A stretch of DNA of 64,000 nucleotides from NCBI GenBank assembly GCA_001821395.1, contig MHLM01000001.1, positions 96,001 to 160,000 on the forward strand, written 5' to 3'. Positions 1 to 59,560 of this stretch are shown piece by piece. The position numbers were made by a program, and so were the translations under genes. The notes beneath the pieces were generated by a model that saw only the letters and a program-made list of their open reading frames with translations, had not been told where the DNA came from and made no database searches. Numbering within the stretch: position 1 is the first letter of the stretch; every line of letters begins with the position of its first letter. The stretch comes from Candidatus Lloydbacteria bacterium RIFCSPHIGHO2_02_FULL_50_18. Lineage in GTDB: Bacteria; Patescibacteriota; Minisyncoccia; Phycocordibacterales; UBA6899.

Positions 1-658
1 GACCCGTGATCTGCATCCAATGTTCCGTTATGACAAGCGGAACGGGAATATGTTTTGCGATTACCGCAAGCGTGTGTGGTAAACCGAATTCTCCGGACGT
101 TCCCCCGATCGGAACGGGAGGGATATCGAGTATCTCATGTCCCAACACATAGAGACCGGTATTCACTAAGCCGTCTGAGACCAAATGCTTTTCCTCTCTT
201 ATGCCGACGAAATTCCCCTTATCGTCAACAAGCATTTCGCCCCCCATTGCTTTGTTGTGAACACGAGAAACACAAACACCCCACGGAAGTGCAATAAGCC
301 TTCTAATGTCCTCTTTGGCATATAAGTCGTCACCCATCATCACCAAAAAACGTTCTCCAAGGAGCGGTTTTGCGGAAAGCAACGCGCCGGCAGTACCATT
401 CAGATCTTCCTGCACGGCGTAACGTATCGTCCTGCCGCCCCAGGAATCTCCTAAATAGTCCTTGATTTGATTCCCCTGATGCCCTATGACCAAAATGACG
501 TCCTTCACCTCACTCGGAAGTACTGCGAGCTTCCATTCAATAAGCGTTTTTCCATTCACCATCTGTAATGACTTTGGAGTGTCCTTGGTGAGCGGGTACA
601 TCCTTGTTCCCCTTCCCGCTGCAAGAATAACCGCCTGAATGTTTTTTTCGTCTCCCAT
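1..658 (-). CDS. Sugar-phosphate nucleotidyltransferase (NTP-transferase family), C-terminally truncated by window edge
   Basis: Reverse-strand translation from ATG at 656-658: MGDEKNIQAVILAAGKGTRMYPLTKDTPKSL... The G-x-G-T-R nucleotide-binding motif (LAAGKGTRM) is typical of glucose-1-P thymidylyl/uridylyl-transferases. The ORF is open to position 1. Confidence 0.7.
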   Translation of the reverse strand, partial: MGDEKNIQAVILAAGRGTRMYPLTKDTPKSLQMVNGKTLIEWKLAVLPSEVKDVILVIGHQGNQIKDYLGDSWGGRTIRYAVQEDLNGTAGALLSAKPLLGERFLVMMGDDLYAKEDIRRLIALPWGVCVSRVHNKAMGGEMLVDDKGNFVGIREEKHLVSDGLVNTGLYVLGHEILDIPPVPIGGTSGEFGLPHTLAVIAKHIPVPLVITEHWMQITG

Positions 659-3759: not shown

Positions 3760-4854
3760 TTACGCATCCTCCATCCTTGGCTTCTCAAGAAGAGTGGGTT
3801 CAAGTCCCGGGGTATTCCCAGTTATACGTGTGACATCTTTGTCGAGTTTCCCCATTTCCTTATAAGCGGCGTTATAGTGGTTCACTGTCGTACTAAGCGC
3901 ATTTCCAAGCTTTCCCATATAGTCCTCATAAGCCTTAAGATGCTTTCCCAGCTCATCGACGCGCTTAATGATGTCTTTAGCAGATTCCTCGATCTTGAAG
4001 GCCTTAAAGCCGTACAAGACCGACTGGAGATAGGCCGCGAAGGTCGTCGGGGAAACAATGATGACCTTCTTTTCATTATAGGCATAGTCAATGAGATTCC
4101 TAGTATTCACCTTGATCGCCCCCACTTCATTCACCAAGAGGTCGTAATATATGCCCTCCGCGGGAATAAACATGAACGCAAACGGGAGCGTCCCCTCTTC
4201 AGGGCGAATATATTTTGAGGTTTCATCGATACGTTTCTTAAGATCGTTTTTGAATTCTTTTTCAAGCTCTTCACGCTGCTTGTCGTCGACCGCCATCGTC
4301 ACACGATTATAGTTATCAAGTGAAAACTTTGCGTCGACGGGAATGAAGCCATCTTTAGTGATGATGACCGCATCGACGGCGTCGTTGTTGAGAAAACGAT
4401 GCTGCATCTTATATGCACCGGGTGGCAGAATATTCGAGAGAATAAGCTCAAGCGATGCTTCGCCCAGGTTGCCGCGTTGTTTCTGGTGTTTGAGTACTTT
4501 TTCAAGATTCGCAAGCTGTTCTGCGATCGCCATGAATCGCGTCGTTGATTCGTTGGTCTTGGTCTGCTCGCGCGCTACTTCAACGAGACTCTTATTCATC
4601 TGCTCGTTTATCTCGCGAAGCAGTTTTTGTGATTCAGAGAATTGTGTCCGCACTGCCTCCGTCATGTCGCGGCGAGATTCCCCCATCTTTGAATCGATGG
4701 TCTTTGCGAGTTCCGCCATCTGCTGTTGAAGCATCAAAAGCGCCTGTGCATTGGCACTCTCTTTCGGAGTCACCTCAGTGCGCAACTTCAAATAGACCAG
4801 GGCGACGATTACTCCCACTAAACAACCAATGACAATGAAGATAAGGTTATCCAT
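3760..4854 (-). CDS. rmuC: DNA recombination protein RmuC
   Basis: 364 aa with an N-terminal TM helix, a long coiled coil and a C-terminal RmuC-family region (FMFIPAEGIYYDLL..., VIIVSPTTFAAYLQSV). Confidence 0.75.
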   Translation of the reverse strand: MDNLIFIVIGCLVGVIVALVYLKLRTEVTPKESANAQALLMLQQQMAELAKTIDSKMGESRRDMTEAVRTQFSESQKLLREINEQMNKSLVEVAREQTKTNESTTRFMAIAEQLANLEKVLKHQKQRGNLGEASLELILSNILPPGAYKMQHRFLNNDAVDAVIITKDGFIPVDAKFSLDNYNRVTMAVDDKQREELEKEFKNDLKKRIDETSKYIRPEEGTLPFAFMFIPAEGIYYDLLVNEVGAIKVNTRNLIDYAYNEKKVIIVSPTTFAAYLQSVLYGFKAFKIEESAKDIIKRVDELGKHLKAYEDYMGKLGNALSTTVNHYNAAYKEMGKLDKDVTRITGNTPGLEPTLLEKPRMEDA

Positions 4855-21873: not shown

Positions 21874-22386
21874 TCATTTACGTAATGCTCCGCTACCGTC
21901 AAAACGCACCACGTACGGAATGCCGGCACCGGCATTTGTCGTTGCACTCGTCAGTACAAAGCTGACTTGGACGATGTTAGGCGTACCCGGTTGAGAAAAG
22001 TTCGAGAAGATAAGATCGCTTATGATAACTTTGTTATTAGTGAGCTCAATCGGAGCACCGACACCTTCAGTGACATAGAGCACCCCGCCGCTTGCAGAGA
22101 ACGTCGTAGGACTCGTAGCGGGCGTTTCAGTGATCACACTCAGAAGTCCACCGAGCGCACCGACGGCGGGACTATTGACCTGACTGGCATTACGGAGCGT
22201 TTGCGTTATTGTTTTTATTGCACGCGAGCCCTGAGCGTTCACCTCAAACACGCTTTGACTGTGCAAACGCGCGGAGATGAGGCCAGCGGAAAAACTCATC
22301 AGCCCGATCACGAACACGCCGAATATCGCCACGTAGACGATCATTTCTATAAGTGAGAAGCCTTTTTGCATATCATATATTTTCAT
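21874..22386 (-). CDS. Type IV pilin-like protein (prepilin N-terminal cleavage/methylation domain)
   Basis: MKIYDMQKG|FSLIEMIVYVAIFGV is the canonical G-F-x-x-x-E prepilin motif. Confidence 0.75.
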   Translation of the reverse strand: MKIYDMQKGFSLIEMIVYVAIFGVFVIGLMSFSAGLISARLHSQSVFEVNAQGSRAIKTITQTLRNASQVNSPAVGALGGLLSVITETPATSPTTFSASGGVLYVTEGVGAPIELTNNKVIISDLIFSNFSQPGTPNIVQVSFVLTSATTNAGAGIPYVVRFDGSGALRK

Positions 22387-22387
22387 A

Positions 22388-24091
22388 TCATAAGGGCGTC
22401 AGACCGACACTAAAGACATGTTTCACCGTGGAGCCAGACGTCCCAATGCTATCGATAACCCCCGTTACTCCCGGTGCAACAATGAACCTGCGATAACTGG
22501 CCCTCGAGAAATCTGATGTGTTTGCACCGCGATCGTAATCTTCGGTCCACCCGCCCCCCTGCGTGAGCGGATTGGCAAACGTGCGCACGGTGGTAGTGTA
22601 CATGCTTGCAAAGACGAGCACTGTTGTGTTGGCGGTTGGAATCGTCATTGATGCGGCACGATAGGTCGTATTACTGACCACGTATTTCGTATTTGAAAAT
22701 ACAGAAATGGGATTTAAGACATCAAAGCAACCACGATATGCGGATAGCGTTACTGCGATCTTTGAGGCGGCGCTAAATCCAAATGTATAATTTGCCCCCT
22801 CAGCCGCTCCTGCGATCTTGTAATAGAGTGCCTGATTGTAGTTACCATTCCTGTGACGGCCGACAAGATTCCATCCAGCGGGTATCACCGACAATCTATC
22901 GATATTTGCGGCAGGATTATGAAGGATGTGAGCAAAAAGAATATCCCCCGCGGCGACTCCGGTTGGCTTCGTTACAACCGCTGAAGCAGATGACGCAGAA
23001 TCGTACACGGTTGGAATACCGACCGGTGCTGAGGCAACAACGCAAGTAGCTGCACCCGTCGTAAATGTTCCATCAGCTGAATAGCCCGTTCCCGTGGTGT
23101 TTATCGCATAGCCACGATAGTAGTACGTCGTTGCTGCAGTGAATCCCGTACGTGCCTGGGTAAATATGCCAAGCGTCGTTCCTCCTTCCGCGACACAATT
23201 TGTCGTAGGTGCGGGTGTTGTTCCCCAACATATTCCGCGCTCTCCGATCGAGGCCGGAATACCGAGTGACGTGACGTTTGCTCCAAGTGTCGCGGTCGTC
23301 TCGGTAATAAGGGCTGCGGTTGGAGTAGTAACCGTGGGGATCACATATTCTTCATACGTAATAGTGCATAATTTTGTGTCGCCATTGGCAAGCATAATGC
23401 TATTTCCAAGGCAATCAGCAGAAAGTGTCAGAGCGTAATTGGGGTCGATCGTTGTCAAAAAAGTGTACACACCGGGACCGAGCGTCATCGTGAACGGTGA
23501 ATAAACGATCGGAATATTCACGGTATTCTGCACGGGTGGTTCTACGGAATTATCCCACGCCAACGTCTGAAGACTATTGGGAAGGAAGTCGCCGAGGACT
23601 TTTGTACCACCATGATTCACTACCGTCTTGTTCACCGTGAGCCCAATATTGAGCGGTGCACGCCAATTCGTAAGATACGTATCCATGGCAACCGTGTGAA
23701 TTCCTAGAACCTGGTCTTCCCACGAAACGACCGTATGTATCCTCTTTTGATCGCTATTGACGGTCGAGAGCGTGACCGTTCGCGAGAAAATACCCTGCAC
23801 ATCGAATGAACCGGATAGGGCCCAAACATTAGCGAGATTGGCGAGACCATAAGTGCCGTCGGGCAAATTTACGAAATCATACTGCGCATCGCGCAGATTT
23901 CTTATTATCTCAAAAGATGCTTCGGCAAGAAAAGCGGCTCTCTCACTGTTCGCGACATGTCGCGCATTACGTGCAACGGTTGTTGTGGCACCTATTGTAG
24001 CAACAACAAAAACCATAAACACTGATAATGCGATCAGTATCTCGATCAAAGAAGATCCGCGACTATTAATATGTGATGGTACCTTTTGCAT
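22388..24091 (-). CDS. Large type IV pilin-like protein (567 aa)
   Basis: N-terminus RG|SSLIEILIALSVFMVFVV is a prepilin motif with Glu5. The long Thr/Gly/Ala-rich beta-rich C-region suggests a minor or tip pilin or an adhesin. Confidence 0.7.
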   Translation of the reverse strand: MQKVPSHINSRGSSLIEILIALSVFMVFVVATIGATTTVARNARHVANSERAAFLAEASFEIIRNLRDAQYDFVNLPDGTYGLANLANVWALSGSFDVQGIFSRTVTLSTVNSDQKRIHTVVSWEDQVLGIHTVAMDTYLTNWRAPLNIGLTVNKTVVNHGGTKVLGDFLPNSLQTLAWDNSVEPPVQNTVNIPIVYSPFTMTLGPGVYTFLTTIDPNYALTLSADCLGNSIMLANGDTKLCTITYEEYVIPTVTTPTAALITETTATLGANVTSLGIPASIGERGICWGTTPAPTTNCVAEGGTTLGIFTQARTGFTAATTYYYRGYAINTTGTGYSADGTFTTGAATCVVASAPVGIPTVYDSASSASAVVTKPTGVAAGDILFAHILHNPAANIDRLSVIPAGWNLVGRHRNGNYNQALYYKIAGAAEGANYTFGFSAASKIAVTLSAYRGCFDVLNPISVFSNTKYVVSNTTYRAASMTIPTANTTVLVFASMYTTTVRTFANPLTQGGGWTEDYDRGANTSDFSRASYRRFIVAPGVTGVIDSIGTSGSTVKHVFSVGLTPL

Positions 24092-24527
24092 TGATGATAA
24101 TATTCCTTACACCAAAACTATTCGTGAGCGTTACCGAACCTGCCCCACCCGTGTTTCCCGTAACTTTCTCGAAGACGATCTCGGAAAGCCCTCCTGCGAA
24201 TACGCCACTCGGCAGGTCGAGCTTCTGGTCTGCTGAGATATCTCTTAGGGCATAGACCCCACCCTTAAAGACGACCACGGAACTCGTAAGTAATGCTACC
24301 CCCCATGGTGAGTCGGCTTTCCCCGACTCCGCATTCGCCTGTGCGTGACGGAGCGCCCCGACGACTCCCATCGTCGCGATCTCGAGATTTTCATGAGCCT
24401 TGAAACTGCCGTAGACTGTTATGGAGACCGCAGTAAGCAACATTATAATGCCAACGACCACGATCAACTCGACGAGTGTGATCCCACGGTGTGATGATCC
24501 TTTAATTGATCTGACTTGATAGTCCAT
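24066..24527 (-). CDS. Type IV pilin-like protein
   Basis: Start MDYQVRSIKGSSHRG|ITLVELIVVVGIIMLL is a prepilin motif. Confidence 0.7.
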   Translation of the reverse strand: MDYQVRSIKGSSHRGITLVELIVVVGIIMLLTAVSITVYGSFKAHENLEIATMGVVGALRHAQANAESGKADSPWGVALLTSSVVVFKGGVYALRDISADQKLDLPSGVFAGGLSEIVFEKVTGNTGGAGSVTLTNSFGVRNIIINAKGTITY

Positions 24528-25638
24528 ATAGTGGTCCCATGATAGCGAGCACAATAAAGCCGACGATCAGACCCACCACGATCAAAACGATCGGTTCTAA
24601 TATGGTGGCAAGATCACGCGACATTGCGTCTGTTTTTTCTTCAAAAATAATACCGATGCGGATGAATGTTTCCGACAACTTCCCGGACTTTTCGGCGGAG
24701 ATAATAAGCTGCTGTATCGGAATGGGAATGAATCGATCTATGTTCAGTAGACTGCCAAATGCTTCTCTGAACGATTCCCCGCGGAGCACGCTTGATTGCA
24801 GGTGCTCATAAAACCTTGCGTATGAGTCATATGATGTCCCTCTTTTGACCGAATCAAGCGCGTCAGCAACCGGGAATCCGGCTTGCAAAAGCACGCCGAA
24901 GATATACCCGAAACGCGCAACCTCGACCCCCTGCACGAGATCTTTTATCCCTGGTATGTGAAAAAGAATTACATCGCCGATGAATTTGGTTCTTTTATAA
25001 AAAAAACATGTATATACCAGAAGACCGATAGCGATGACGGATATAGGCACCGCAAAAGCACCATACTGCTCAAAGAAAGAGCCCATAGAGACCAATATTC
25101 TCGTCGCAAGAGGAAGCTCTCCCTTTGTTTCTGAAAAAATAGCGACAATCTTCGGTAGCACGAGCCACGCACTTCCCAGTGCGATGATAAGAGCGAGAAA
25201 AAAGACGATGCCCGGATACAACAATGCGGACCGGAGTCGTGAGTGGAACATCTTCTCTTTGTGCTGCTGAACGGTGACAAGATTCAAATGATCTGACAGC
25301 CTTCCCGCCTCCTCACCCGAACGAATGAGCGAGATGATGCGTTCTGAAAAAAGTTTTGTCTCCGAAAACGACCTCCAAAGCGGCATTCCCGAATTCACCA
25401 TCGACTCGATCGCAGCGGTAATCTTCTTCATCTTGCGTGTCTTGACCGAAAGACTGAGTGCTGCAAGGGCTGCGGATATCCCCATACCGGAAGAAATGAG
25501 CAGGCTCAAGTTTTCGATGAAATAGTCACGCTCATCACCGAAACCAACACTGAGGTACGGCCAGTCGGGGCGATATTCGAATGGGACTTCTTTAAAACCC
25601 TCATGTTCACGCGATTTTCGAAATTTTATTTGTTGCAT
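24502..25638 (-). CDS. pilC: Type IV pilus assembly platform protein PilC (GspF family)
   Basis: 378 aa with two GspF repeats and 3 TM helices. Confidence 0.8.
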   Translation of the reverse strand: MQQIKFRKSREHEGFKEVPFEYRPDWPYLSVGFGDERDYFIENLSLLISSGMGISAALAALSLSVKTRKMKKITAAIESMVNSGMPLWRSFSETKLFSERIISLIRSGEEAGRLSDHLNLVTVQQHKEKMFHSRLRSALLYPGIVFFLALIIALGSAWLVLPKIVAIFSETKGELPLATRILVSMGSFFEQYGAFAVPISVIAIGLLVYTCFFYKRTKFIGDVILFHIPGIKDLVQGVEVARFGYIFGVLLQAGFPVADALDSVKRGTSYDSYARFYEHLQSSVLRGESFREAFGSLLNIDRFIPIPIQQLIISAEKSGKLSETFIRIGIIFEEKTDAMSRDLATILEPIVLIVVGLIVGFIVLAIMGPLYGLSSQIN

Positions 25639-25647
25639 GGTCGTTTA

Positions 25648-27294
25648 TTAAGAACCGACAACACGAAGCACTTCTTCGATGGTTGTCATACCAGCTTTTA
25701 CTTTTTCGATGCCATCCTCAAACATGGAGACGAATCCCTGGCTCTTGATGAGCGCCATCACGTCTTTGGTCGACGGGCTCTTTGCAATAAGATTTTGTAG
25801 CTCAGGAGAGGTGCTTAAAAACTCAAATACTCCGATACGCCCCTTATACCCAGTATGCGAACAAACCTCACAGCCGTTTCCCTTATAAAGGGTCGCCCCA
25901 TCCTTAAAATGTCGGGCAACCTCCGAGCCAAACGACTCGAGCTCAGCGACCTTGTTTATGCGAAAACTTACCTTACACGAATCACAAATTTTGCGTACGA
26001 GCCTTTGACCAACGATCAACTCGAGCGTCGAGCCGACCAAAAATGGCTCAACGCCCATATCGATGAAACGTGGGATTGCTGTTGCCGCATTATTGGCGTG
26101 AAAGGTCGAAAGCATTAGATGCCCCGTCAACGCTGCGTTGACCGCGATATCAGCCGTTTCAAGATCGCGGATTTCTCCGACAAAGATGGTGTTCGGGTCT
26201 TGACGCATGATCGCGCGAAGTCCGTTTCCGAACGTCAGATTCGTCTGAGTATTGACCTGGATCTGATTTATTCCGTGGATCTTATATTCGACCGGATCTT
26301 CGATCGTCGTGATGTTCGTGCCCCTCGTATTGATGATCTTGATGATCGAGTAGAGCGTTGTTGTCTTACCGCTCCCCGTAGGACCAGTTACTAGGATCAT
26401 GCCGAACGGCTTCTTTGCGCTTTTAATGATCTGTTCCTGTAATGCGAGAGATAATCCAATGTCACTCAGACCGAGATCACGGACGGATGAAGAAAGAATG
26501 CGGATAGCGACCTTTTCCCCGTCGAGCGTAGGAACTATCGACACCCGGAGGTCGACCATCTCTGTGTGACTCGGAGATGCGTAGCGAATGACCCCGTCCT
26601 GTGCACTGAAATGCTCATCGATACGTAACTTGGACTGGACCTTCAAACGATTGACGATATTCTCATAGTATTCTTTCGGCATTTCGCCGACATCATGAAG
26701 TACGCCGTCTATCCTGAAGCGGATGACAACGCGATGCTCTTCGGGTTCACAATGAATATCGGACACCTTGAGCAGTAACGCCTCCTCAAATATCTGATTG
26801 ATGATCTCCGGAGCTGCACGCCCCTTGCTATCGATGATCTTCGCGAAGATCGCCCCTAATCCCAGATGGTAGTTCGCAAAGATAGCATCAATTTCATCAG
26901 GGATTGCGAGAGTGATCGTCAGTTTTTTATCGGGAAATAGCGGCTGCAGATTCGCCAAGAGTTCTTCCTGTGTGGGGTCATCAGTTGCGATGACTACGTC
27001 TGAACCTTTTTGTGAATAAACTACCGTACGATATTTTTTGGCAAGCTCCTCGGGAATAAGAAAAACCTGTTCTTTTCTGGGGCTGTGCGCTTCGAGATCG
27101 GAATAAGAAACCCCGAAAGACTCTGCGAATGCCTGACCGATGATTGCCCTCGAAAGCAAGCCCTGACCGAGCAAATAATCAACGAATGAACCGCGATGTT
27201 CTTTCGCGTATTCTTCCGCGATTGCAATATCTTTTTCTTCGATATAATTCCCGGCAAGAAGAACTTTTTTGATCGCTTCGTCATTAAAATTCAT
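25648..27294 (-). CDS. pilB: Type IV pilus assembly ATPase PilB (GspE family)
   Basis: Walker A GPTGSGKTTTLYS, Asp and His boxes, and a tetracysteine CDSC...CEVC. Confidence 0.85.
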   Translation of the reverse strand: MNFNDEAIKKVLLAGNYIEEKDIAIAEEYAKEHRGSFVDYLLGQGLLSRAIIGQAFAESFGVSYSDLEAHSPRKEQVFLIPEELAKKYRTVVYSQKGSDVVIATDDPTQEELLANLQPLFPDKKLTITLAIPDEIDAIFANYHLGLGAIFAKIIDSKGRAAPEIINQIFEEALLLKVSDIHCEPEEHRVVIRFRIDGVLHDVGEMPKEYYENIVNRLKVQSKLRIDEHFSAQDGVIRYASPSHTEMVDLRVSIVPTLDGEKVAIRILSSSVRDLGLSDIGLSLALQEQIIKSAKKPFGMILVTGPTGSGKTTTLYSIIKIINTRGTNITTIEDPVEYKIHGINQIQVNTQTNLTFGNGLRAIMRQDPNTIFVGEIRDLETADIAVNAALTGHLMLSTFHANNAATAIPRFIDMGVEPFLVGSTLELIVGQRLVRKICDSCKVSFRINKVAELESFGSEVARHFKDGATLYKGNGCEVCSHTGYKGRIGVFEFLSTSPELQNLIAKSPSTKDVMALIKSQGFVSMFEDGIEKVKAGMTTIEEVLRVVGS

Positions 27295-48056: not shown

Positions 48057-50243
48057 ATGAAAAACAAAACGCTGGTCATTGTCGAGTCACCGACAAAGAT
48101 CAAGAAGCTTGAAGCCTACCTTGGCGATGACTACATCGTCCTCGCTTCCGTTGGACATATTCGCGACCTCCCAAAATCCAATAAGGTCGCTATCGATATC
48201 GATGGCGGTTTTGTACCGCATTATGAAATTGTTCCGGGGAAGGACAAGGTGGTTCGCGAACTCAAGGAGGCGGCGAAGGTCGTCAAAGAAGTCCTCCTCG
48301 CAACCGACCCCGACCGCGAAGGCGAGGCTATCGCCTGGCACATCGTCGAAGTCCTCGGCCTAAAAAATGCAAAACGTATCGTATTTCATGAAATCACTGA
48401 ATCTGCAATACAAGAAGCGGTGAAACACCCCCGTCCAATCGATGAAAACCTCCGCCAGGCACAGGAAGCACGACGCATCCTTGATCGTCTCGTAGGATAT
48501 GACCTTTCGGGACTTATCTGGAAAAAAGTTCGCTATGGCCTCTCTGCGGGACGCGTGCAATCCCCGGCGCTCCGTATCATCATGGAGCGGGAACGAGAGA
48601 TCCGTGCGTTCATTCCGGAAACATTCTGGAGACTGACCGCGGACGTTGCGACCGCAAAAAAAGAACCATTCACGCTCACCTGTAGCGAGGAGCCGAGAGA
48701 CAAAGAACTTGTAGACAGGATCCTCAAAGAAGGAAAGATGAATGACTGGTATGTCCTCGAAGTGAAAGAAACCCAGGTTGCGCGCACGCCGAAGACTCCT
48801 TTTACTACCTCAACACTCCAGCAGTCCGCATCAACTCGACTCGGACTGTCCCCCTCGCGCACGATGCAGATCGCACAGAAACTTTATGAGGCCGGACTCA
48901 TCAGTTATATGCGTACCGATAGCACCAATCTCGCGCAAGAGGCGCAGAAAGAAATTCTCGCTATGATCGAAAAGACCTATGGCAAGGAAAAGGCGATGGC
49001 ACGTACCTACAAAACGAAGAGCAAGAATGCACAAGAAGCACATGAAGCAATTCGTCCCACGAGCGCATCAAAGAAAAAGGCGGGACTAACTCCAGAGCAG
49101 CAAAGTCTCTATGCCCTGATATGGGAGCGCACGATCGCATCGCAGATGATCGATGCCACCACATTGCGTACAAAAATAGTGGCGAATATAGAGGGAGCAA
49201 AGCAGCCAATTCCCGATTTTCATGCGAACGGATCGCGTATCATCGCAAAAGGATGGCTCGAAGCGGATCCCGATGCCGCTGGCGAAGAAGTCACTCTTCC
49301 AAAAGTTTCATCCGGAGATAAGCTCATACTAAAACAGCTCGACGCCCTCGAGAAGCAAACCGAACCGCTTCCCCGTTACACCGAGGCGGGTCTCATTAAG
49401 GAGCTCGACAAACGCGACATCGGTCGACCGTCGACCTATGCTTCCATCCTCCGGACCATCACCACGAGAGGTTACGTGAATAAAGAAGGCAAGACGCTCA
49501 TACCGACTGATACCGGGGATGTCGTCAGTTCATTCCTCGAACAACACTTTGCCAAATACATCAGTGACACATTCACTGCAGAGATAGAGCAAAAACTCGA
49601 TGATATCGCCCTCGGGAAACGAAAATATGCAAAGACGCTGAAAGAATTTTATGATCCATTCAAAAAAGATGTGAAATCGAAAGATAAAATTGAGAAGATT
49701 ACCAACCTTGGTGAGGCACCGATGGGACTGCTTTGTCCAAAGTGCGGCGGCAATATGATCATCAAGCTCGGCAAGAACGGCAAGTTCTTATCATGCGCAA
49801 AATTTCCGGATTGTGACGGATTGCGCGGTATCGACGGACAAGAGATCGAGGGCCCCCGTCTCACCGGAGAAAAATGCCCCGACTGCGAGAAGGGTGACCT
49901 CATCGAGCGCGAGGGTAAGTTCGGACGATTCATTGCTTGTGCAAACTATCCGAAATGCAAATACATCAAAAAAGATGCCAATCTTAACCCGGTCACCTCA
50001 AGCGGAGTCAAATGTAATATCTGCAACGAGGGCGACATGATCGAGCGACGTGGCAGATTCGGGATATTTTGGTCATGTTCGAACTATCCGAAATGCAAAC
50101 ATGCGATCAAGGCGAAACCGACGGGGAAATTATGCCCAATGTGCCAAGCACTCATGATGGAAGGTACGAAAACAATTCCCGAGAGATGTTCAAAAAAGGA
50201 GTGCCCCAACCATAACCCGCACAAGCTCAATAAACCCAAATAG
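48057..50243 (+). CDS. topA: DNA topoisomerase I
   Basis: Toprim MKNKTLVIVESPTKIKKLEAYLG and the active-site region, with C-terminal C4 zinc ribbons (CPKCGG...C.C). The upstream 46 codons of the long ORF are excluded. Confidence 0.9.
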   Translation: MKNKTLVIVESPTKIKKLEAYLGDDYIVLASVGHIRDLPKSNKVAIDIDGGFVPHYEIVPGKDKVVRELKEAAKVVKEVLLATDPDREGEAIAWHIVEVLGLKNAKRIVFHEITESAIQEAVKHPRPIDENLRQAQEARRILDRLVGYDLSGLIWKKVRYGLSAGRVQSPALRIIMEREREIRAFIPETFWRLTADVATAKKEPFTLTCSEEPRDKELVDRILKEGKMNDWYVLEVKETQVARTPKTPFTTSTLQQSASTRLGLSPSRTMQIAQKLYEAGLISYMRTDSTNLAQEAQKEILAMIEKTYGKEKAMARTYKTKSKNAQEAHEAIRPTSASKKKAGLTPEQQSLYALIWERTIASQMIDATTLRTKIVANIEGAKQPIPDFHANGSRIIAKGWLEADPDAAGEEVTLPKVSSGDKLILKQLDALEKQTEPLPRYTEAGLIKELDKRDIGRPSTYASILRTITTRGYVNKEGKTLIPTDTGDVVSSFLEQHFAKYISDTFTAEIEQKLDDIALGKRKYAKTLKEFYDPFKKDVKSKDKIEKITNLGEAPMGLLCPKCGGNMIIKLGKNGKFLSCAKFPDCDGLRGIDGQEIEGPRLTGEKCPDCEKGDLIEREGKFGRFIACANYPKCKYIKKDANLNPVTSSGVKCNICNEGDMIERRGRFGIFWSCSNYPKCKHAIKAKPTGKLCPMCQALMMEGTKTIPERCSKKECPNHNPHKLNKPK

Positions 50244-50543
50244 GTAGCTTGCAATCTGCATTGCAAGCGGAAAATTGTTTTTGTGAGACGGAGCATTGTT
50301 TCGCCAGCAGGCGAAACGCGAGTCGGGGTCGCGAGCGTTTTCGTTCGACGGAACGAAAACGACTTGTGACCAAAAACTATTCCCGAACGATGCAGCAAGA
50401 AGGAGTGCCCGAATCATAACCCCCACAAACTGAACAAGCTCACATAACACAAATACCACCCGCTCCAGAGAGCGGGTGATTGATTCTTGCTCAACTACCT
50501 ACTTTTTCATCTGTACACAGTTGCACAAATCTGATTTTTCGTT

Positions 50544-52114: not shown

Positions 52115-53290
52115 CTAGATCGAAAAATTGCTGACCGAGTAGAGAGCGTCGTCTTCGGACTCATCGGTCTTTTTTATCTCACCTTCTGCTTCCGGTATCG
52201 CTTCTCGGTCACCTGGAGGCTCATGATGCTCATCGTCGGAAATATCGGTACTGAATCGTTGGAACGAGTCGAGGTGGTCGGGGGCGTCATCAAGAGGTAT
52301 GAGCGGGGCTTGCGGAGCCTCAAACGGCGCAAAAGAATGTCCATCACGGGGAATGACCTCGTCGTGCGATATGCGAATCGGAGTACTCTCCTCGAGTGTT
52401 TTCATTGCCTTGCTTGTGTCCGATGCGGCGGTCGAGGCTTTACGCAGCAGTGAAAGCTGTTCGGAAAAATGCACCTTATCGAGCAATGCACGCAGGTCAT
52501 CACTGGAGAAGAAATCAATGACCAACTTTCCGCCCCCTACCTGTCGACGTTCGATGGAAACGCGCGTTCCTAGGGTTTCCGCAAGCTCCTTTTCAATGAG
52601 CTCCATCTCGGGATCGCGAGGGATCTTGCTGCGTACCCGCTCTTTTGCGATGTGCCGCGCGATCTGTTCTGCCTCCCTCACGGTGAGCTTTTTGAAAAGA
52701 ATTTCTTTATAGAGCGTATTCTGTTCTTCTTTTCGATCGGTAAGCATCATCAAAGGGCGTGCATGCCCCTCAGTGATGCGCCCCTGCGCAAGCGCATCGA
52801 GGATCTCTTTCGGAAGTACGAGCAATCGCAATGTATTCGAAACATACTCACGACTCTTCCCCACTTTCTTTGCGATCTCAGTGTGCTTCAAGCTAAATTC
52901 TTGTGCAAGCCGCGCAAATGAAATAGCGCGATCAACGGGATTGAGGTCTTCGCGCTGCAAGTTCTCGATGATGGCGAGCTCGAGCTTGAGACGCGGATCG
53001 GTCACCGCCTGAATGATAGCCGGCACACGCAAGAGTCCCGCAAGCCTGGAGGCGCGCAAACGACGCTCTCCTGCGATGAGTTCGTATTCCACGACCATTC
53101 CCCCATCAGGTAGCTCAACTTCGCTTCGCGTGACGACGAGCGGCTGAAGCACCCCATACTGGCGGATAGAGTCTGCAAGGTCACGCAAATGAGCTTCGTC
53201 AAACTCTTTTCTCGGCTGATAGGGATTCGGTTTGATCTTCTCGACTTCGATCCAAAAAATGGCGTTGTTTATAAATTCAGACATGCGCAC
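52115..53290 (-). CDS. parB: ParB/Spo0J-like partition protein with long acidic C-terminal extension
   Basis: ParB N-domain GERRLRASRLAGL and HTH. Confidence 0.75.
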   Translation of the reverse strand: MRMSEFINNAIFWIEVEKIKPNPYQPRKEFDEAHLRDLADSIRQYGVLQPLVVTRSEVELPDGGMVVEYELIAGERRLRASRLAGLLRVPAIIQAVTDPRLKLELAIIENLQREDLNPVDRAISFARLAQEFSLKHTEIAKKVGKSREYVSNTLRLLVLPKEILDALAQGRITEGHARPLMMLTDRKEEQNTLYKEILFKKLTVREAEQIARHIAKERVRSKIPRDPEMELIEKELAETLGTRVSIERRQVGGGKLVIDFFSSDDLRALLDKVHFSEQLSLLRKASTAASDTSKAMKTLEESTPIRISHDEVIPRDGHSFAPFEAPQAPLIPLDDAPDHLDSFQRFSTDISDDEHHEPPGDREAIPEAEGEIKKTDESEDDALYSVSNFSI

Positions 53291-53597
53291 ATTCTAGCAT
53301 AGAACCACCCGCCGCAATGATGTGTACAAAGTGTTGATGAGTTTGATTTTTGGATGCGAGTTCGTTACACTATCCCCACAAGCTGGAGTGGCGGAATGGT
53401 AGACGCGTGAGGTGCTGGATTAGCGAAGCAGCGCTTCGCAAGCACCGCAAGGTCGGAGCCATGTCGAGGCTTTGTGAGACAGGCGAGACGGGGTCGCAAG
53501 AACTTATGAGCGAAGCGAATTAGTTACTTGAGACCGACGTAGTCGTGCGCAGTGTGGATGTCGTGAGAATTGTTCAAAAAAATAAATAGTTCGTATT

Positions 53598-53678
53598 GCC
53601 GGAGTGGCGGAATGGTAGACGCGCACGACTCAAAATCGTGTTTCGAAAGAAGTGAGGGTTCAAGTCCCTCCTCCGGCA
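53598..53678 (+). tRNA. tRNA-Leu (anticodon CAA)
   Basis: Acceptor GCCGGAG/CUCCGGC, anticodon loop CU-CAA-AA, a 13-nt variable arm (type II), and T-arm GAGGG-UUCAAGU-CCCUC. It is followed by a hairpin plus T-run at 53694-53713. Confidence 0.8.
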
Positions 53679-53730
53679 CATTTTGAAAAATCAGCCCATG
53701 TGGGCGATTTTTCTTATGTGCCGGAGAGAA

Positions 53731-54067
53731 AGTGCTCTGCGGCACTTTCGTGAGGGACTTGAAAAGCTTTGCGATGTTTATAAAGAATTCTTATTCTGAA
53801 TAAACCGCAAGGGTGTACTGACCGAGTAGCGGTCAAGTCCCCTCTTTCTTTGACAAAAAACGTAGTAACTCGTGACCAAGTCTGATACCCTTGCGTGCTT
53901 TCGTGAGGGACTTGAAAGGGATTTCGATATTTTCAAGGAGCCATGCTCCGAGAAAATCGAAATCCACCTGGCGAAGTAATCGCCAAGTCCCTCGTTAATT
54001 GCATCAATAAGACCTAGTGATTCGTGACCAAGTCCGAGAGTACTGCTCGGCTTCCGTGAGGTGACCC
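53731..54067. repeat. Degenerate tandem repeats containing tRNA-Leu T-arm-like fragments
   Basis: Repeated ctttcgtgagggacttgaaa(ag/gg) at 53745 and 53895, with cttccgtgaggtgaccc at 54048. T-arm-like caagtccc cores occur at 53830, 53878, 53985 and 54030. Confidence 0.6.
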
Positions 54068-54162
54068 ACTAGAGACGCGCATGATTGTACCTGCGCATTG
54101 CACTCATACATATTCTCAAGTAGAGTTGACTCAGAATCTCATAGTCAATTTACGGAGGAAAA

Positions 54163-54642
54163 ATGCAACAAATATCGTCCCTCGGTGAGCTTTCGGCGAT
54201 ACAAAGTACCGCACTCGATGAAGCACTTCTAGTGCTAGAAAACTCCTACAATCCCTATTCTCACTTTTGTGTCGGGGCATGCCTCTATACACAAGACGGA
54301 AAACTGGTATCCGGAACAAATGTCGAAAACGCTGCGTATGGTTCAACCATTTGCGCCGAACGTTCCGCCATTTTGAGTGCAAATGCACTCGGAATCAGAC
54401 GATTCATTGGCATTGCGATCATCGCGCGCGGAGAAAATTTCGACACAACGGAAGTCACTGGTCCGTGCGGAAGCTGTCGGCAAATGCTTTATGAACTTTC
54501 GCAAATTTCGAACTGCGACCTAGAGATCGTTCTTTCGACGTCAAAGAAGGATAAGATCATCGTAACAACAATCAAGGAACTTCTCCCGCTCGCCTTTGGC
54601 CCAGTTGATCTCGGCATCGACATCACCAAGTATCAAAAATAA
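54163..54642 (+). CDS. cdd: Cytidine deaminase
   Basis: CAERSAI...CGSCRQ zinc-binding motifs. Confidence 0.85.
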   Translation: MQQISSLGELSAIQSTALDEALLVLENSYNPYSHFCVGACLYTQDGKLVSGTNVENAAYGSTICAERSAILSANALGIRRFIGIAIIARGENFDTTEVTGPCGSCRQMLYELSQISNCDLEIVLSTSKKDKIIVTTIKELLPLAFGPVDLGIDITKYQK

Positions 54643-57378: not shown

Positions 57379-57398
57379 GAAATCAGCGGGCCCACGAG
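57379..57398 (-). repeat. Partial copy of the tRNA-Trp 3' end
   Basis: gcgggcccacgagga(a/g)tcga matches 57554-57573 (19/20). Confidence 0.65.
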
Positions 57399-57554
57399 GA
57401 ATCGATCGCAGTACCGTTCGTTGCGGTCACAGATAATTTCCTCGCCGTCGCACGGAAATTTCCGCGACCCCGACTCGCAACCTCGCTTGCTAGCTCGGTA
57501 TCAGCTCCGTCTCCCGCAAAGCGAAAAACTGCATTCGCAGTTATTTCGTCTTTG

Positions 57555-59390: not shown

Positions 59391-59560
59391 GCGTAGAGCA
59401 AGCGAAGCTTGCGGGCAGGATTCGAAGACCCTGAGTTTATCGTAGCGAGCTTGTCCTCAAGCGATGCGAGATTCGAAGGGTGTACTGTCCATGTAATGGA
59501 AGAAACTCCTGCCCTTTCAATATGGCTTCCGGCAGGATTCGAAGCCGTTCTCCCATGTTT
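59391..59560. repeat. Three degenerate ~58-nt tandem repeats with tRNA-Tyr T-arm-like cores (caggattcgaag)
   Basis: gcgggcaggattcgaag (59413), gcgagattcgaag (59466) and ccggcaggattcgaag (59530), compared with the tRNA-Tyr gcaggttcgaatcc. Confidence 0.55.

Follow-up and report, generated by a model that had tools for sequence, protein, structure and literature searches.

Compact structured elements at tRNA gene ends of a patescibacterial genome: possible site-specific insertions

Introduction

What has accumulated around the tRNA-Leu(CAA) gene of this Candidatus Lloydbacteria genome? In the window (the whole stretch of 64,000 nucleotides that was analysed) the gene lies between parB (52115-53283, minus strand) and cdd (54163-54642), with a partial copy of itself upstream and repeats resembling its T-arm downstream. 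A previous sequence-only reading, which had placed the locus between these two genes correctly, took the pattern for scars of repeated integration and excision at a tRNA hotspot, or for an array derived from the tRNA. We propose, as a reading that we consider about evenly balanced, that small insertion elements, tightly folded and without genes, have piled up at the locus. With similar, moderate confidence we assign its content to one intact and several partial members of two related element families.

Results

Layout of the tRNA-Leu(CAA) locus

The features of the locus and of the other copies in the window are collected in Table 1. ARAGORN and Rfam both identify one tRNA only, and no intron-containing tRNA. 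The first 26 nt of tRNA-Leu (53598-53623) recur upstream with 25 identities, a match for which shuffled sequences give an expectation of 0; the recurrence had been described before, but at 53384-53409 instead of 53382-53407. We refer to this copy as the stump. There is a single tRNA-Leu 3' end in the locus, in line with the earlier remark that the stump has no matching 3' half. The inverted repeat around the terminator-like hairpin is also real, although it measures 11 nt and not 10 bp (CTCCGGCACAT at 53671-53681 with ATGTGCCGGAG at 53716-53726). The hairpin enclosed by it is absent from the output of a simple terminator scan.

The downstream repeat blocks and T-arm-like cores are present, with coordinates 1-2 nt off those first given. 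CTTTCGTGAGGGACTTGAAA occurs twice (53745-53764 and 53898-53917, spacing 153 nt), and the 16-mer CGTGAGGGACTTGAAA has exact matches solely at these two sites within the 64 kb. CAAGTCCC cores are found at 53834-53841 and 53984-53991. Together the repeats form two tandem units of ~152 nt, which are 71-83% identical in pieces and have central hairpins without sequence relation. Both units contain GAGGGACTTGAA, a perfect 12-nt complement of tRNA TTCAAGTCCCTC, comprising the T-loop and the T-stem 3' strand. This complement of the T-arm had been overlooked in the sequence-only reading.

Table 1. Features of the tRNA-Leu(CAA) locus and other element copies in the window
Feature	Position	Strand	Basis and remarks
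Type B element just 3' of the topA stop codon	50275..50382	+	R1 67.6 bits, outside training set; fold z-score -5.2
Promoter-like TTGATT-N17-TACACT, 10 nt 5' of stump	53343..53371	+	By reading; putative promoter
Stump: tRNA-Leu(CAA) positions 1-26, GCTGGAG for GCCGGAG	53382..53407	+	25/26 identity
Hairpin opening the upstream insert, GGTGCT...AGCACC, inner GCGAAGC-AGC-GCTTCGC	53411..53446	+	Fold
Type B core: GTC-GGAGC hairpin GCGA-GAC, then GGGGTCGCAAG hairpin CTTGAGACC	53440..53546	+	R1 74.6 bits, E 8e-19; itself among the 14 sequences used to build R1, so score not independent
AGTCGTGCGC, perfect complement of tRNA positions 24-33, across the stump breakpoint	53541..53550	+	
A/T-rich spacer, insert to intact tRNA	53551..53597	+	
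Intact tRNA-Leu(CAA)	53598..53679	+	ARAGORN; Rfam tRNA model 62.2 bits
Terminator-like hairpin, A-run 5', T-run 3'	53685..53714	+	By reading; putative terminator
acc' ATGTGCCGGAG: inverted acceptor 3' strand, discriminator base, 3 trailer nt	53716..53726	+	
hp1 hairpin GAAAGTGC-TCTGCG-GCACTTTC, between acc' and T'	53728..53749	+	
Type A element 1 (U1): T' arm GAGGGACTTGAA (53752-53763), variable hairpin, GTACTGA, mini-hairpin, direct T-arm copy CAAGTCCCCTC (53834-53844)	53752..53844	+	R2 77.9 bits (R2 training member); fold z-score -5.3
Type B 3' fragment ACGTAGTAACTCGTGACC, then short T-arm-like AAGTC	53857..53885	+	
Type A element 2 (U2): T' arm (53905-53916), hairpin, mini-hairpin, direct T-arm copy CAAGTCCCTC (53984-53993)	53905..53994	+	R2 66.4 bits (R2 training member); fold z-score -6.4; conserved in L217
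Second type B 3' fragment CCTAGTGATTCGTGACC, then AAGTCC	54009..54037	+	83% identity to first; also in L217
Degenerate third arm CGTGAGGTGACCC...	54055..54078	+	Sequence comparison
Type B element, 31 nt 3' of tRNA-Trp	57385..57523	-	R1 match 57414-57523, 55.6 bits, outside training set
Type A element 3' of tRNA-Tyr, T' GGCAGGATTCGAA (59413-59425)	59413..59543	+	R2 59415-59511, 39.2 bits, outside training set

Two families of three-way junctions

The repeats belong to two structured families, type A and type B, for which we built the covariance models R2 and R1, respectively. Both types are three-way junctions supported by covariation. The elements measure ~85-140 nt and contain no ORF. Their 5' arm, T', is an inverted copy of tRNA positions 54-64 (T-loop and T-stem 3' strand), preceded in some copies by an inverted acceptor 3' strand, acc'; elsewhere, 17 of 65 tRNA-linked elements have a segment like acc' that is 7 nt or longer. 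The 3' end of type B (...GTGAC) adjoins a direct copy of the tRNA that runs from C56 of the T-loop (standard tRNA numbering) through the acceptor end into the trailer. Direct copies in type A start a few nt earlier, at about G52.

Compensatory changes were found at 12 of the 18 predicted pairs among 14 hand-picked type B copies. In the metagenome copies, where the pairing percentages have to be read with the fitting of the family alignments to the models in mind, 96.8% of cells are paired in type B (103 copies; 75% in shuffles, 29-40% with slid partners) and 88.8% in type A (29 matches; 62% in shuffles). Double-change cells in type B number 357 against 105 in shuffles, and the closing helix P1, formed by T' and the direct copy, covaries at all eight of its pairs. 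A near-invariant G.U pair, present in 92 of 99 type B rows, fixes the strand. The support of the base pairs by compensatory changes goes beyond the controls, as is found for structured RNA or ssDNA motifs.

The locus matched the tRNA family of Rfam 15 and no other, even at relaxed thresholds (E up to 10 over 53200-54250), and strong cores of seven other loci matched no Rfam family. A full-text literature search returned no description of either element family. We rejected a known ribozyme, riboswitch or sRNA, in view of the missing Rfam match and an order of CUGA, GAAA and GUA that, by eye, is unlike the hammerhead core.

Downstream array and upstream insert

The downstream T-arm-like repeats are arms of two type A elements, copied from the target, with fragments of type B in between. 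The first of these fragments (53857..53885) corresponds to TAGTAACTCGTGACC, the conserved 3' end of type B in L055 and L070. Homologues of hp1 occupy the equivalent position in L038, L055, L024 and L217. The energy-minimum fold pairs the hp1 region differently. One relative, L217, has a single unit where the window has two, and it is U1 that is missing. The displaced piece at 53834-53856 of the window aligns with the functional tRNA 3' end and trailer of L217.

Upstream, the stump lies next to the promoter-like motif and is followed by a 190-nt insert with a type B core of ~105 nt, and then by the intact tRNA. In L001, L212, L213 and L216 the motif likewise stands 5' of the stump or the tRNA. 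The insert and an orthologous stump are common to the window and two relatives, L212 and L213, and a further relative, L216, represents the empty site, in which the promoter leads directly into an uninterrupted tRNA without a stump. At least one compensatory change separates the orthologous upstream copies, which come from three species; the inner stem of the opening hairpin differs in sequence between the window and L213 and is paired in both. AGTCGTGCGC is identical in L212 and L213. Insertion polymorphism, with filled and empty alleles, is thus observed for the upstream insert (L216) and for U1 (L217), and the presence/absence comparison that the sequence-only reading had suggested came out positive.

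Other copies in the window

An element accompanies three of the four tRNAs in the window, and another follows topA. The topA element is enclosed by a duplication of the 3'-terminal ~69 nt of the gene (copies at about 50166-50234 and 50370-50439). Within these copies, 50196-50234 and 50396-50434 both encode KECPNHNPHKLNK, with seven synonymous differences between them, and the same arrangement exists in L017, L048 and L157. The duplicated topA 3' end led us to consider a diversity-generating retroelement, which we rejected by eye because the repeats are short and the differences show no adenine specificity. Behind the tRNA-Trp element stands a direct copy of the tRNA-Trp 3' end (CGATTCCTCGTGGGCCCGC), and near tRNA-Tyr a second identical T' (59531-59543) opens a truncated element. 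Direct repeats of the tRNA 3' end are seen at tRNA-Trp and tRNA-Tyr, and in part at tRNA-Leu.

The three type B cores of the window are mutually diverged (similarity 0.23-0.39), and seven metagenome contigs found through identical cdd proteins are 100% identical over the locus. Given both observations, nothing points to recent activity in this genome.

Targets, spread and genomic surroundings

Most type B matches (87 of 121) lie at most 400 nt 3' of a tRNA or tmRNA and are co-oriented with it. In an unbiased, ParB-anchored set, 24 of 40 matches fall within the 3.4% of strand-space (our own arithmetic) located 3' of tRNAs. Across Patescibacteria metagenomes, tmRNA, topA and tRNAs with about 37 anticodons are targeted, the tRNAs representing at least 20 amino-acid specificities. 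Occupancy in the sampled relatives is 21 of 103 tRNAs; among 55 orthologous tRNA-Leu(CAA) loci, an element is present at 9. One intact tRNA is kept in every case. In 50 of 73 cases the core is followed by a directly repeated tRNA 3' part, which most commonly starts at C56; the median match score is 16, against 6 in a control region.

The same core can occur at different targets. Near-identical 85-nt cores are found at tRNA-Leu(CAA), tRNA-Arg(TCT), tRNA-Asn and another site, on separate contigs, and a topA-linked core is similar to a tRNA-linked one. Clustering of cores by target type is not significant (7 of 78 nearest neighbours share the label; shuffled mean 2.7, maximum 9). Tandem arrays occur in L117 (three copies) and L056 (two copies), a type B core is nested within a type A element in L130, and tRNA pieces of foreign type are present in L055, L134 and L054. 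The direct repeat often reaches into the genome's own trailer, so that local duplication fits as well as import. T' has kept 9/9 complementarity to the functional tRNA, and changes have gathered in the downstream copy (1 change against 11 in seven interpretable cases). T' includes the complement of U54-U55, which adjoins C56 solely in the intact tRNA and not in the proposed free unit.

Within 2.5 kb of the 121 elements, no integrase, transposase or reverse transcriptase recurs, and the ORF clusters found there are housekeeping genes. A Pfam scan of 56 window ORFs detected no recombinase, integrase, transposase or reverse transcriptase. A regular-expression scan for split or ORF-carrying "autonomous" cores was uninformative. 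A phage origin was rejected, since all four viral matches of a pattern scan are chance matches in coding DNA, and blastn searches of phage and plasmid collections found nothing. In L213, a gene for a large serine recombinase of 551 aa is convergent on tRNA-Leu and overlaps its 3' end.

Discussion

We favour, with a confidence that does not go beyond the middle of the scale, the explanation that the elements are non-autonomous, site-specific insertion elements of Patescibacteria that target tRNA, tmRNA and a small number of protein genes in their 3' parts. The mobile unit would consist of a tRNA 3' part, the terminator, hp1, T' and the core, and would recombine site-specifically with a tRNA gene in the T-loop, at 55|56. 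It would bring a new 3' end and terminator, and the old 3' end would be displaced downstream, where it decays; repeated insertions and deletions could produce the array. The upstream insert may be the mirror case, in which the gene was broken after position 26 by an insert carrying tRNA positions 1-26, so that the intact tRNA would now lie 216 nt 3' of its original promoter. We speculate that the folded core, as ssDNA or RNA, together with the T':tRNA duplex, is the recognition target of an enzyme acting in trans.

The main competitor, somewhat improbable in our judgement, is that the elements are structured RNAs of the host, acting in cis or trans and made by read-through from the tRNA or topA promoter. 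T', and acc' where it is present, would guide the RNA by antisense pairing to the T-arm and the 3' acceptor strand of the adjoining tRNA; such an RNA could control 3'-end formation, tag read-through or recruit tRNA-processing enzymes as a minihelix, and the direct copies would be by-products of the spread of the RNA gene. This would account for the strand-specific structure, the conserved junction nucleotides, the near-invariant G.U pair and the constant co-orientation with the upstream gene, and also for the presence of an element at three of the four window tRNAs. Furthermore, elements with an acc' could fold as an acceptor/T minihelix built from acc', hp1, T', the core and the direct copy. 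T' spans U54-U55, which adjoin C56 in the intact tRNA alone, it has kept perfect complementarity to the functional tRNA despite decay of the downstream copy, and orthologous copies from three species show at least one compensatory change; selection for pairing in place, that is, an RNA function, fits these observations at least as well as mobility does. However, 27 of 72 tRNA-linked cores lie 3' of a terminator-like hairpin with a T-run, presence is patchy (21/103 tRNAs, 9/55 loci), and fragments, nested copies and tandem arrays are frequent. Nor does an antisense role readily explain one core subtype at unrelated targets, including a protein gene, or target duplications such as 69-75 nt of topA coding sequence, which have no obvious RNA role.

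That the locus is an insertion hotspot with short tRNA-derived repeats, as the sequence-only reading held, is supported by our results, but its scar interpretation, in the form of passive attL/attR remnants of large integrase-bearing prophages or islands that repeatedly entered and were excised or deleted, we consider unlikely. Direct repeats of the tRNA 3' end from the T-loop are the classic signature of tRNA integration, and they bound the element in 50 of 73 cases; the L213 recombinase gene points the same way, as does a copy of the tRNA-Trp 3' end in L055 that lies ~1.9 kb from the tRNA with ORFs between. Against this, more than 70 cases have repeats ~110-200 nt apart around the same conserved covarying core, which is unlike random deletion remnants, and no integrase remnants, cargo genes or ORFs were found between the repeats. 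Serine recombinases are not known to form long direct repeats. The material between the arms consists of conserved structured elements in relatives, an outcome that the sequence-only reading itself had named as speaking against it, and neither passive scars of large elements nor a simple tRNA-derived array is therefore supported. Purely local events, in which the tRNA and its flank were duplicated in tandem, a palindrome was extended around the terminator and decay followed, would require no dedicated element. Exact tandem duplications in L117, L056 and L087 agree with such events, and the tRNA 3' end, terminator, acc' and T' combine into a long palindrome with the terminator at its centre, which fold-back copying could yield. 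Left unexplained is why a conserved core with the junction GTGAC|C56 recurs in many genomes beside tmRNA, topA and tRNAs of 20 or more amino-acid specificities, and why near-identical cores stand at different targets; local events are already disfavoured by the family-wide data, and we rate them as very improbable. The chance that the 5' half and a downstream part form an intron-containing, split or permuted tRNA appears negligible: group I introns are common in tRNA genes of Patescibacteria (PMC13011429), but even with E values up to 10 admitted, ARAGORN and Rfam revealed neither a further tRNA nor a group I or group II intron, the stump lacks a matching 3' half, and the downstream tRNA is complete by itself.

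Several known systems resemble the elements in part. The CTX phage hairpin mimics a duplex target site, and by analogy T' and the tRNA-derived arm might mimic T-arm DNA. Like CTX attP(+) and integron attC sites (PMC6393395), the elements are small (about 60-150 nt), can stand in arrays, depend on strand-specific secondary structure more than on sequence and are detectable by covariance models. They differ from both in their conserved junction nucleotides (GGAGC, GCGAG, GGGGTCG, GTGACC), in targeting tRNA, tmRNA and topA, and in arms copied from the target, and their use of ssDNA is putative. No cassette ORF or integron integrase is seen near them, and by eye their motifs differ from the R''/R' boxes of attC (RYYYAAC ... 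GTTRRRY). With tRNA-integrating genomic islands, prophages and the miniature derivatives of these (CIMEs) they share the tRNA or tmRNA site, the direct repeat from T-loop to 3' end, the supply of a replacement 3' end and the pile-up of old ends downstream. In contrast to islands and CIMEs, the unit is 110-200 nt long and lacks an integrase, it contains an inverted target copy as well as a three-way-junction core supported by covariation, and a single core family serves tRNAs of at least 20 amino-acid specificities.

MITE, REP, BOX and ERIC sequences are likewise ORF-less, multi-copy, hairpin-rich, modular and intergenic, with nested and tandem copies. The elements, however, lack terminal inverted repeats of their own and a short fixed target-site duplication, are found strictly at tRNA, tmRNA and topA 3' ends, and are diverged within a genome while their structure is kept across genera by compensatory change. 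We rejected a MITE on these lines, as the inverted arms are copied from each target and vary with it, the duplications are of variable length (20-75 nt), and the near-identical multiple copies expected within one genome were not found (type B similarity in the window as given above). An IS200/IS605 palindrome element or omega RNA was rejected as well, there being no tnpA/tnpB ORF cluster nearby and no Rfam match. In the EBS of group II introns, the IS110 bridge RNA and the omega RNA of TnpB/IscB, as in the elements, a structured scaffold lies beside matches to both target strands; in the elements, T' and acc' supply the complementary strand and the 3' direct copy the identical one. Here the elements differ in having no associated protein gene or Rfam match and in their long target duplications, and their guide role is putative. 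The tRNA genes of Patescibacteria also receive structured, RNA-like insertions in the form of group I introns; these interrupt the anticodon loop at position 35/36, are recognised by the group I model and splice themselves out (PMC13011429), whereas the elements have no group I match, occupy the T-loop or 26|27 and leave an uninterrupted tRNA copy.

More tentatively, and we think it rather doubtful, the elements could form a new class of guide-bearing mobile nucleic acids or of tRNA-antisense regulatory RNAs. In the former version, the three-way-junction core of ~100 nt would be self-contained, T' with or without acc' would locate the T-arm in gene or transcript, and insertion at 55|56 would proceed by ribozyme-like chemistry of its own or through a programmed host enzyme, with the tRNA 3' end being rebuilt. 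In the latter, a regulatory RNA would adjoin at least one fifth of the tRNA genes of Patescibacteria.

The genomes of Patescibacteria are among the smallest of bacteria, and despite this about one in five tRNA genes of the sampled relatives carries 100-400 nt of element material. If the elements are mobile, they would show how essential genes can be entered without harm by means of a replacement gene end, and, their own enzyme being absent nearby, the moving enzyme and the choice between an RNA and an ssDNA form would be directly testable. If they are T-arm antisense RNAs, they would represent an unrecognised layer of tRNA control in this phylum. Partial tRNA copies and 26-nt repeats also break assemblies and can mislead tRNA annotation, and the models R1 and R2 can be used to annotate the elements.

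Insertions at the tRNA-Leu(CAA) locus

The sole tRNA-Leu(CAA) gene of the window lies in the 879 nt that separate parB (minus strand) from cdd. As the sequence-only reading had reported, the first 26 nt of this gene recur upstream as a stump (25/26 identical; none expected in shuffles), and no second tRNA-Leu 3' half was found at the locus. The repeated blocks and T-arm-like cores that it described downstream are likewise present: CTTTCGTGAGGGACTTGAAA occurs twice at a spacing of 153 nt, together with two CAAGTCCC cores. The inverted repeat around the terminator-like hairpin is also there, but 11 nt long rather than 10. A second complete or intron-containing tRNA, the alternative considered there, does not appear: Rfam searches of the locus at E values up to 10 gave no second tRNA, intron or other family. 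GAGGGACTTGAA, present in both downstream units, is the perfect complement of the tRNA-Leu T-loop and T-stem 3' strand. Several independent metagenome assemblies of the organism break exactly at the 26-nt repeat (window 53598/53616 and 53413; L206-L211), and the elements therefore fragment assemblies.

Features of the window discussed in the text
Feature	Position	Remarks
tRNA-Leu(CAA)	53598-53679	sole copy in window
Stump	53382-53407	copy of tRNA positions 1-26
Type B copy	53440-53546	between stump and tRNA-Leu(CAA); R1 match and R1 training sequence
Type B copy	50275-50382	directly after topA; R1 match
Type B copy	57414-57523	minus strand; directly after tRNA-Trp; R1 match
Inverted repeat	53671-53681, 53716-53726	flanks terminator-like hairpin
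U1	53752-53844	type A, downstream of tRNA-Leu(CAA)
U2	53905-53994	type A, downstream of tRNA-Leu(CAA)
CAAGTCCC cores	53834, 53984	downstream of tRNA-Leu(CAA)
Duplicated topA end	50166-50439	39-nt conserved block at 50196-50234 and 50396-50434
GCGAAGC	53423-53429, 53510-53516	
Type IV pilus/type II secretion set	21874-27294	prepilin-like N_methyl protein, T2SSF, T2SSE
RmuC-family gene	3760-4854	

Two kinds of structured element

Reading of the relatives' loci and an nhmmer pass revealed a recurring element of ~85-140 nt, type B, with a closing helix P1 followed by G-N-C GGAGC [variable hairpin] GCGA G-N-C and GGGGTCG-NGAG [hairpin] C-Y-Y-GTGACC. Compensatory changes affect 12 of 18 predicted pairs (n = 14 copies). 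A pattern scan of metagenomes gave at least 120 stretches, and the type B covariance model, R1, identified three copies in the window and at least 103 among the matches listed (80 metagenome and 4 viral loci). In these 103 copies 96.8% of cells are paired; shuffles give 75% and slid partners 29-40%. Double-change cells number 357, versus 105 in shuffles. The sense strand is set by a near-invariant G.U pair and is that of the upstream gene. The motif GCGAAGC, an unusually stable DNA mini-hairpin, recurs at many loci in apical loops of element hairpins, for example GAGCGAAGCGAA. On one short contig (L095), a strong type B core is accompanied by a fragment (160-273) resembling the 5' region of bacterial 23S rRNA (a 40-bit match that falls short of the gathering score).

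The two ~152-nt units downstream of tRNA-Leu represent a second kind, type A, consisting of a T' arm complementary to the tRNA T-arm, (A)AAGG, a variable hairpin, CCTGTACTGA and a mini-hairpin whose pairing partner is a copy of tRNA positions 52-57. Of the 14 pairs predicted for type A, 12 have compensatory changes (n = 13 copies), and in the 29 copies found with its model, R2, 88.8% of cells are paired versus 62% in shuffles. U1 and U2 fold into three-way junctions (z-scores -5.3 and -6.4), and in each unit the type A element is followed by a type B 3' fragment (TAGTAACTCGTGACC). Many downstream tRNA copies in L103, L157 and L203 (similarly L116 and L141) are interrupted right after the T-loop CGA by a small module, AAGYGTACTCRCGG, which looks like a third kind of T-loop mini-insert.

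Targets and target-derived arms

Most type B copies among the matches listed (87 of 121) follow a tRNA or tmRNA gene of the same orientation at a distance of no more than 400 nt, mostly 20-90 nt, and at least 20 amino-acid specificities are represented; in nine loci topA ends ~30 nt before the core. An unbiased ParB-anchored set (613 kb, 103 tRNAs) carries a type A or B element at 21 of the 103 tRNAs (Leu-CAA 9/55, Trp 7/24, Tyr 3/9), and 24 of its 40 element matches are tRNA-linked. The carriers in the window are tRNA-Leu, tRNA-Trp, tRNA-Tyr and topA; its tRNA-Gln is without an element.

The arms are derived from the target. In 50 of 73 tRNA-linked type B copies among the matches listed, ...GTGAC is followed by a direct tRNA copy that most often begins at C56, spans the acceptor end and extends into the trailer, with lengths of up to at least 33 nt. 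T' is complementary to tRNA positions 54-64, and P1 covaries at 8/8 pairs. In 17 of 65 cases T' is preceded by acc', the acceptor 3' strand copied in inverted orientation, with a conserved small hairpin (hp1) in between. Where the real tRNA and the downstream copy differ by point changes (7 cases), T' keeps its full 9/9 complementarity to the real tRNA in 6; T' has 1 change and the downstream copy 11 (one-sided P of about 0.003 by our own arithmetic).

The segment duplicated at topA comprises the final ~69-75 nt of the coding sequence. In the window the last ~69 nt are present twice, flanking the type B element, and both conserved blocks encode KECPNHNPHKLNK with synonymous differences only. 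L017, L048 and L157 have the same layout; in L048 the consensus CPNHNP persists in the downstream copy, and the in-gene copy has CANHNP. What the data show is a family of structured insertions, each of which duplicates a portion of its target, with one intact gene always retained.

Polymorphism and spread

All ParB relatives belong to the Paceibacteria group within the Patescibacteria; among the species representatives a Ca. Lloydbacteria genome is the closest, and the window's cdd protein is 99% identical to one of Ca. Lloydbacteria RIFCSPHIGHO2_01_FULL_49_22. Most of the 60 scanned relatives have tRNA-Leu(CAA) upstream of parB, usually in divergent orientation, and partial copies adjoining the gene are common. 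The two genes share a strand in 11 of the 60 (L001-L060) and are on opposite strands in most, which suggests repeated local inversions.

The presence/absence polymorphism anticipated from the sequence is seen among relatives. The comparison covered three ParB relatives with 78-89% identity. L212, L213 and the window share the order stump, hairpin, type B core, anti-(24-33) segment, spacer and intact tRNA; the P3 pairing GGTC/GACC is GGCC/GGCC in L213, a compensatory change, and contains a G.T pair in L212. In L216 the same promoter-like motif as in the window directly joins an uninterrupted tRNA (GACGCG|CACG), and this is therefore an empty site; the contig extends only four bases beyond the junction. 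On the downstream side, L217 (cdd 88% identical) carries a terminator of its own, acc', canonical hp1 and T', followed by U2 only; thus, the window's extra ~173 nt begin at C56 of the functional tRNA. Window 53834-53856, the displaced old 3' end, aligns with the real tRNA 3' end and trailer of L217.

Near-identical 85-nt cores occur on different contigs at tRNA-Leu(CAA), tRNA-Arg(TCT), tRNA-Asn and a fourth site, and one topA-linked core is similar to a tRNA-linked core. There are tandem arrays (three copies in L117, two in L056), nested copies (L130) and tRNA pieces of foreign type (L055, L134, L054). In L212, the closest relative, the orthologous type B core contains an extra ~58-nt insert in hairpin 3 (about 95-155, minus strand), which brings its model score down to 22.6 bits and may be a nested insertion. 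In L213 (79% ParB identity) a gene for a 551-aa large serine recombinase (116-1833; Resolvase, Recombinase and Zn_ribbon_recom domains) is convergent with tRNA-Leu(CAA) and overlaps its 3' end by 20 nt; the contig stops at this gene, truncating the presumed integrated element, and no type A array is present at this tRNA.

Mobility or RNA function

We infer site-specific recombination in the T-loop or, in the case of the upstream insert, at 26|27. The inserting unit would bring a replacement gene end, and a trans-acting enzyme would recognise the folded core with the T':tRNA duplex. No candidate mobilising enzyme recurred within 2.5 kb of the 121 elements, none was found among the 56 window ORFs scanned with Pfam, and the copies in the window genome are old, which counts against mobility. 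The conserved T':tRNA complementarity, which includes U54-U55, is accounted for at least as well by an RNA acting on the neighbouring tRNA as by mobility. However, a terminator-like hairpin precedes 27 of 72 cores, and this speaks against simple co-transcription. These explanations are not mutually exclusive.

The elements match no Rfam 15 family and nothing in the phage and plasmid collections searched, the four viral pattern hits being chance matches in coding DNA. We found no description of the family in the literature searched; the nearest paper deals with group I introns in anticodon loops of Patescibacteria tRNAs (PMC13011429). The pilus/secretion gene set and the RmuC-family gene of the window may be background relevant to DNA uptake and inverted-repeat recombination.
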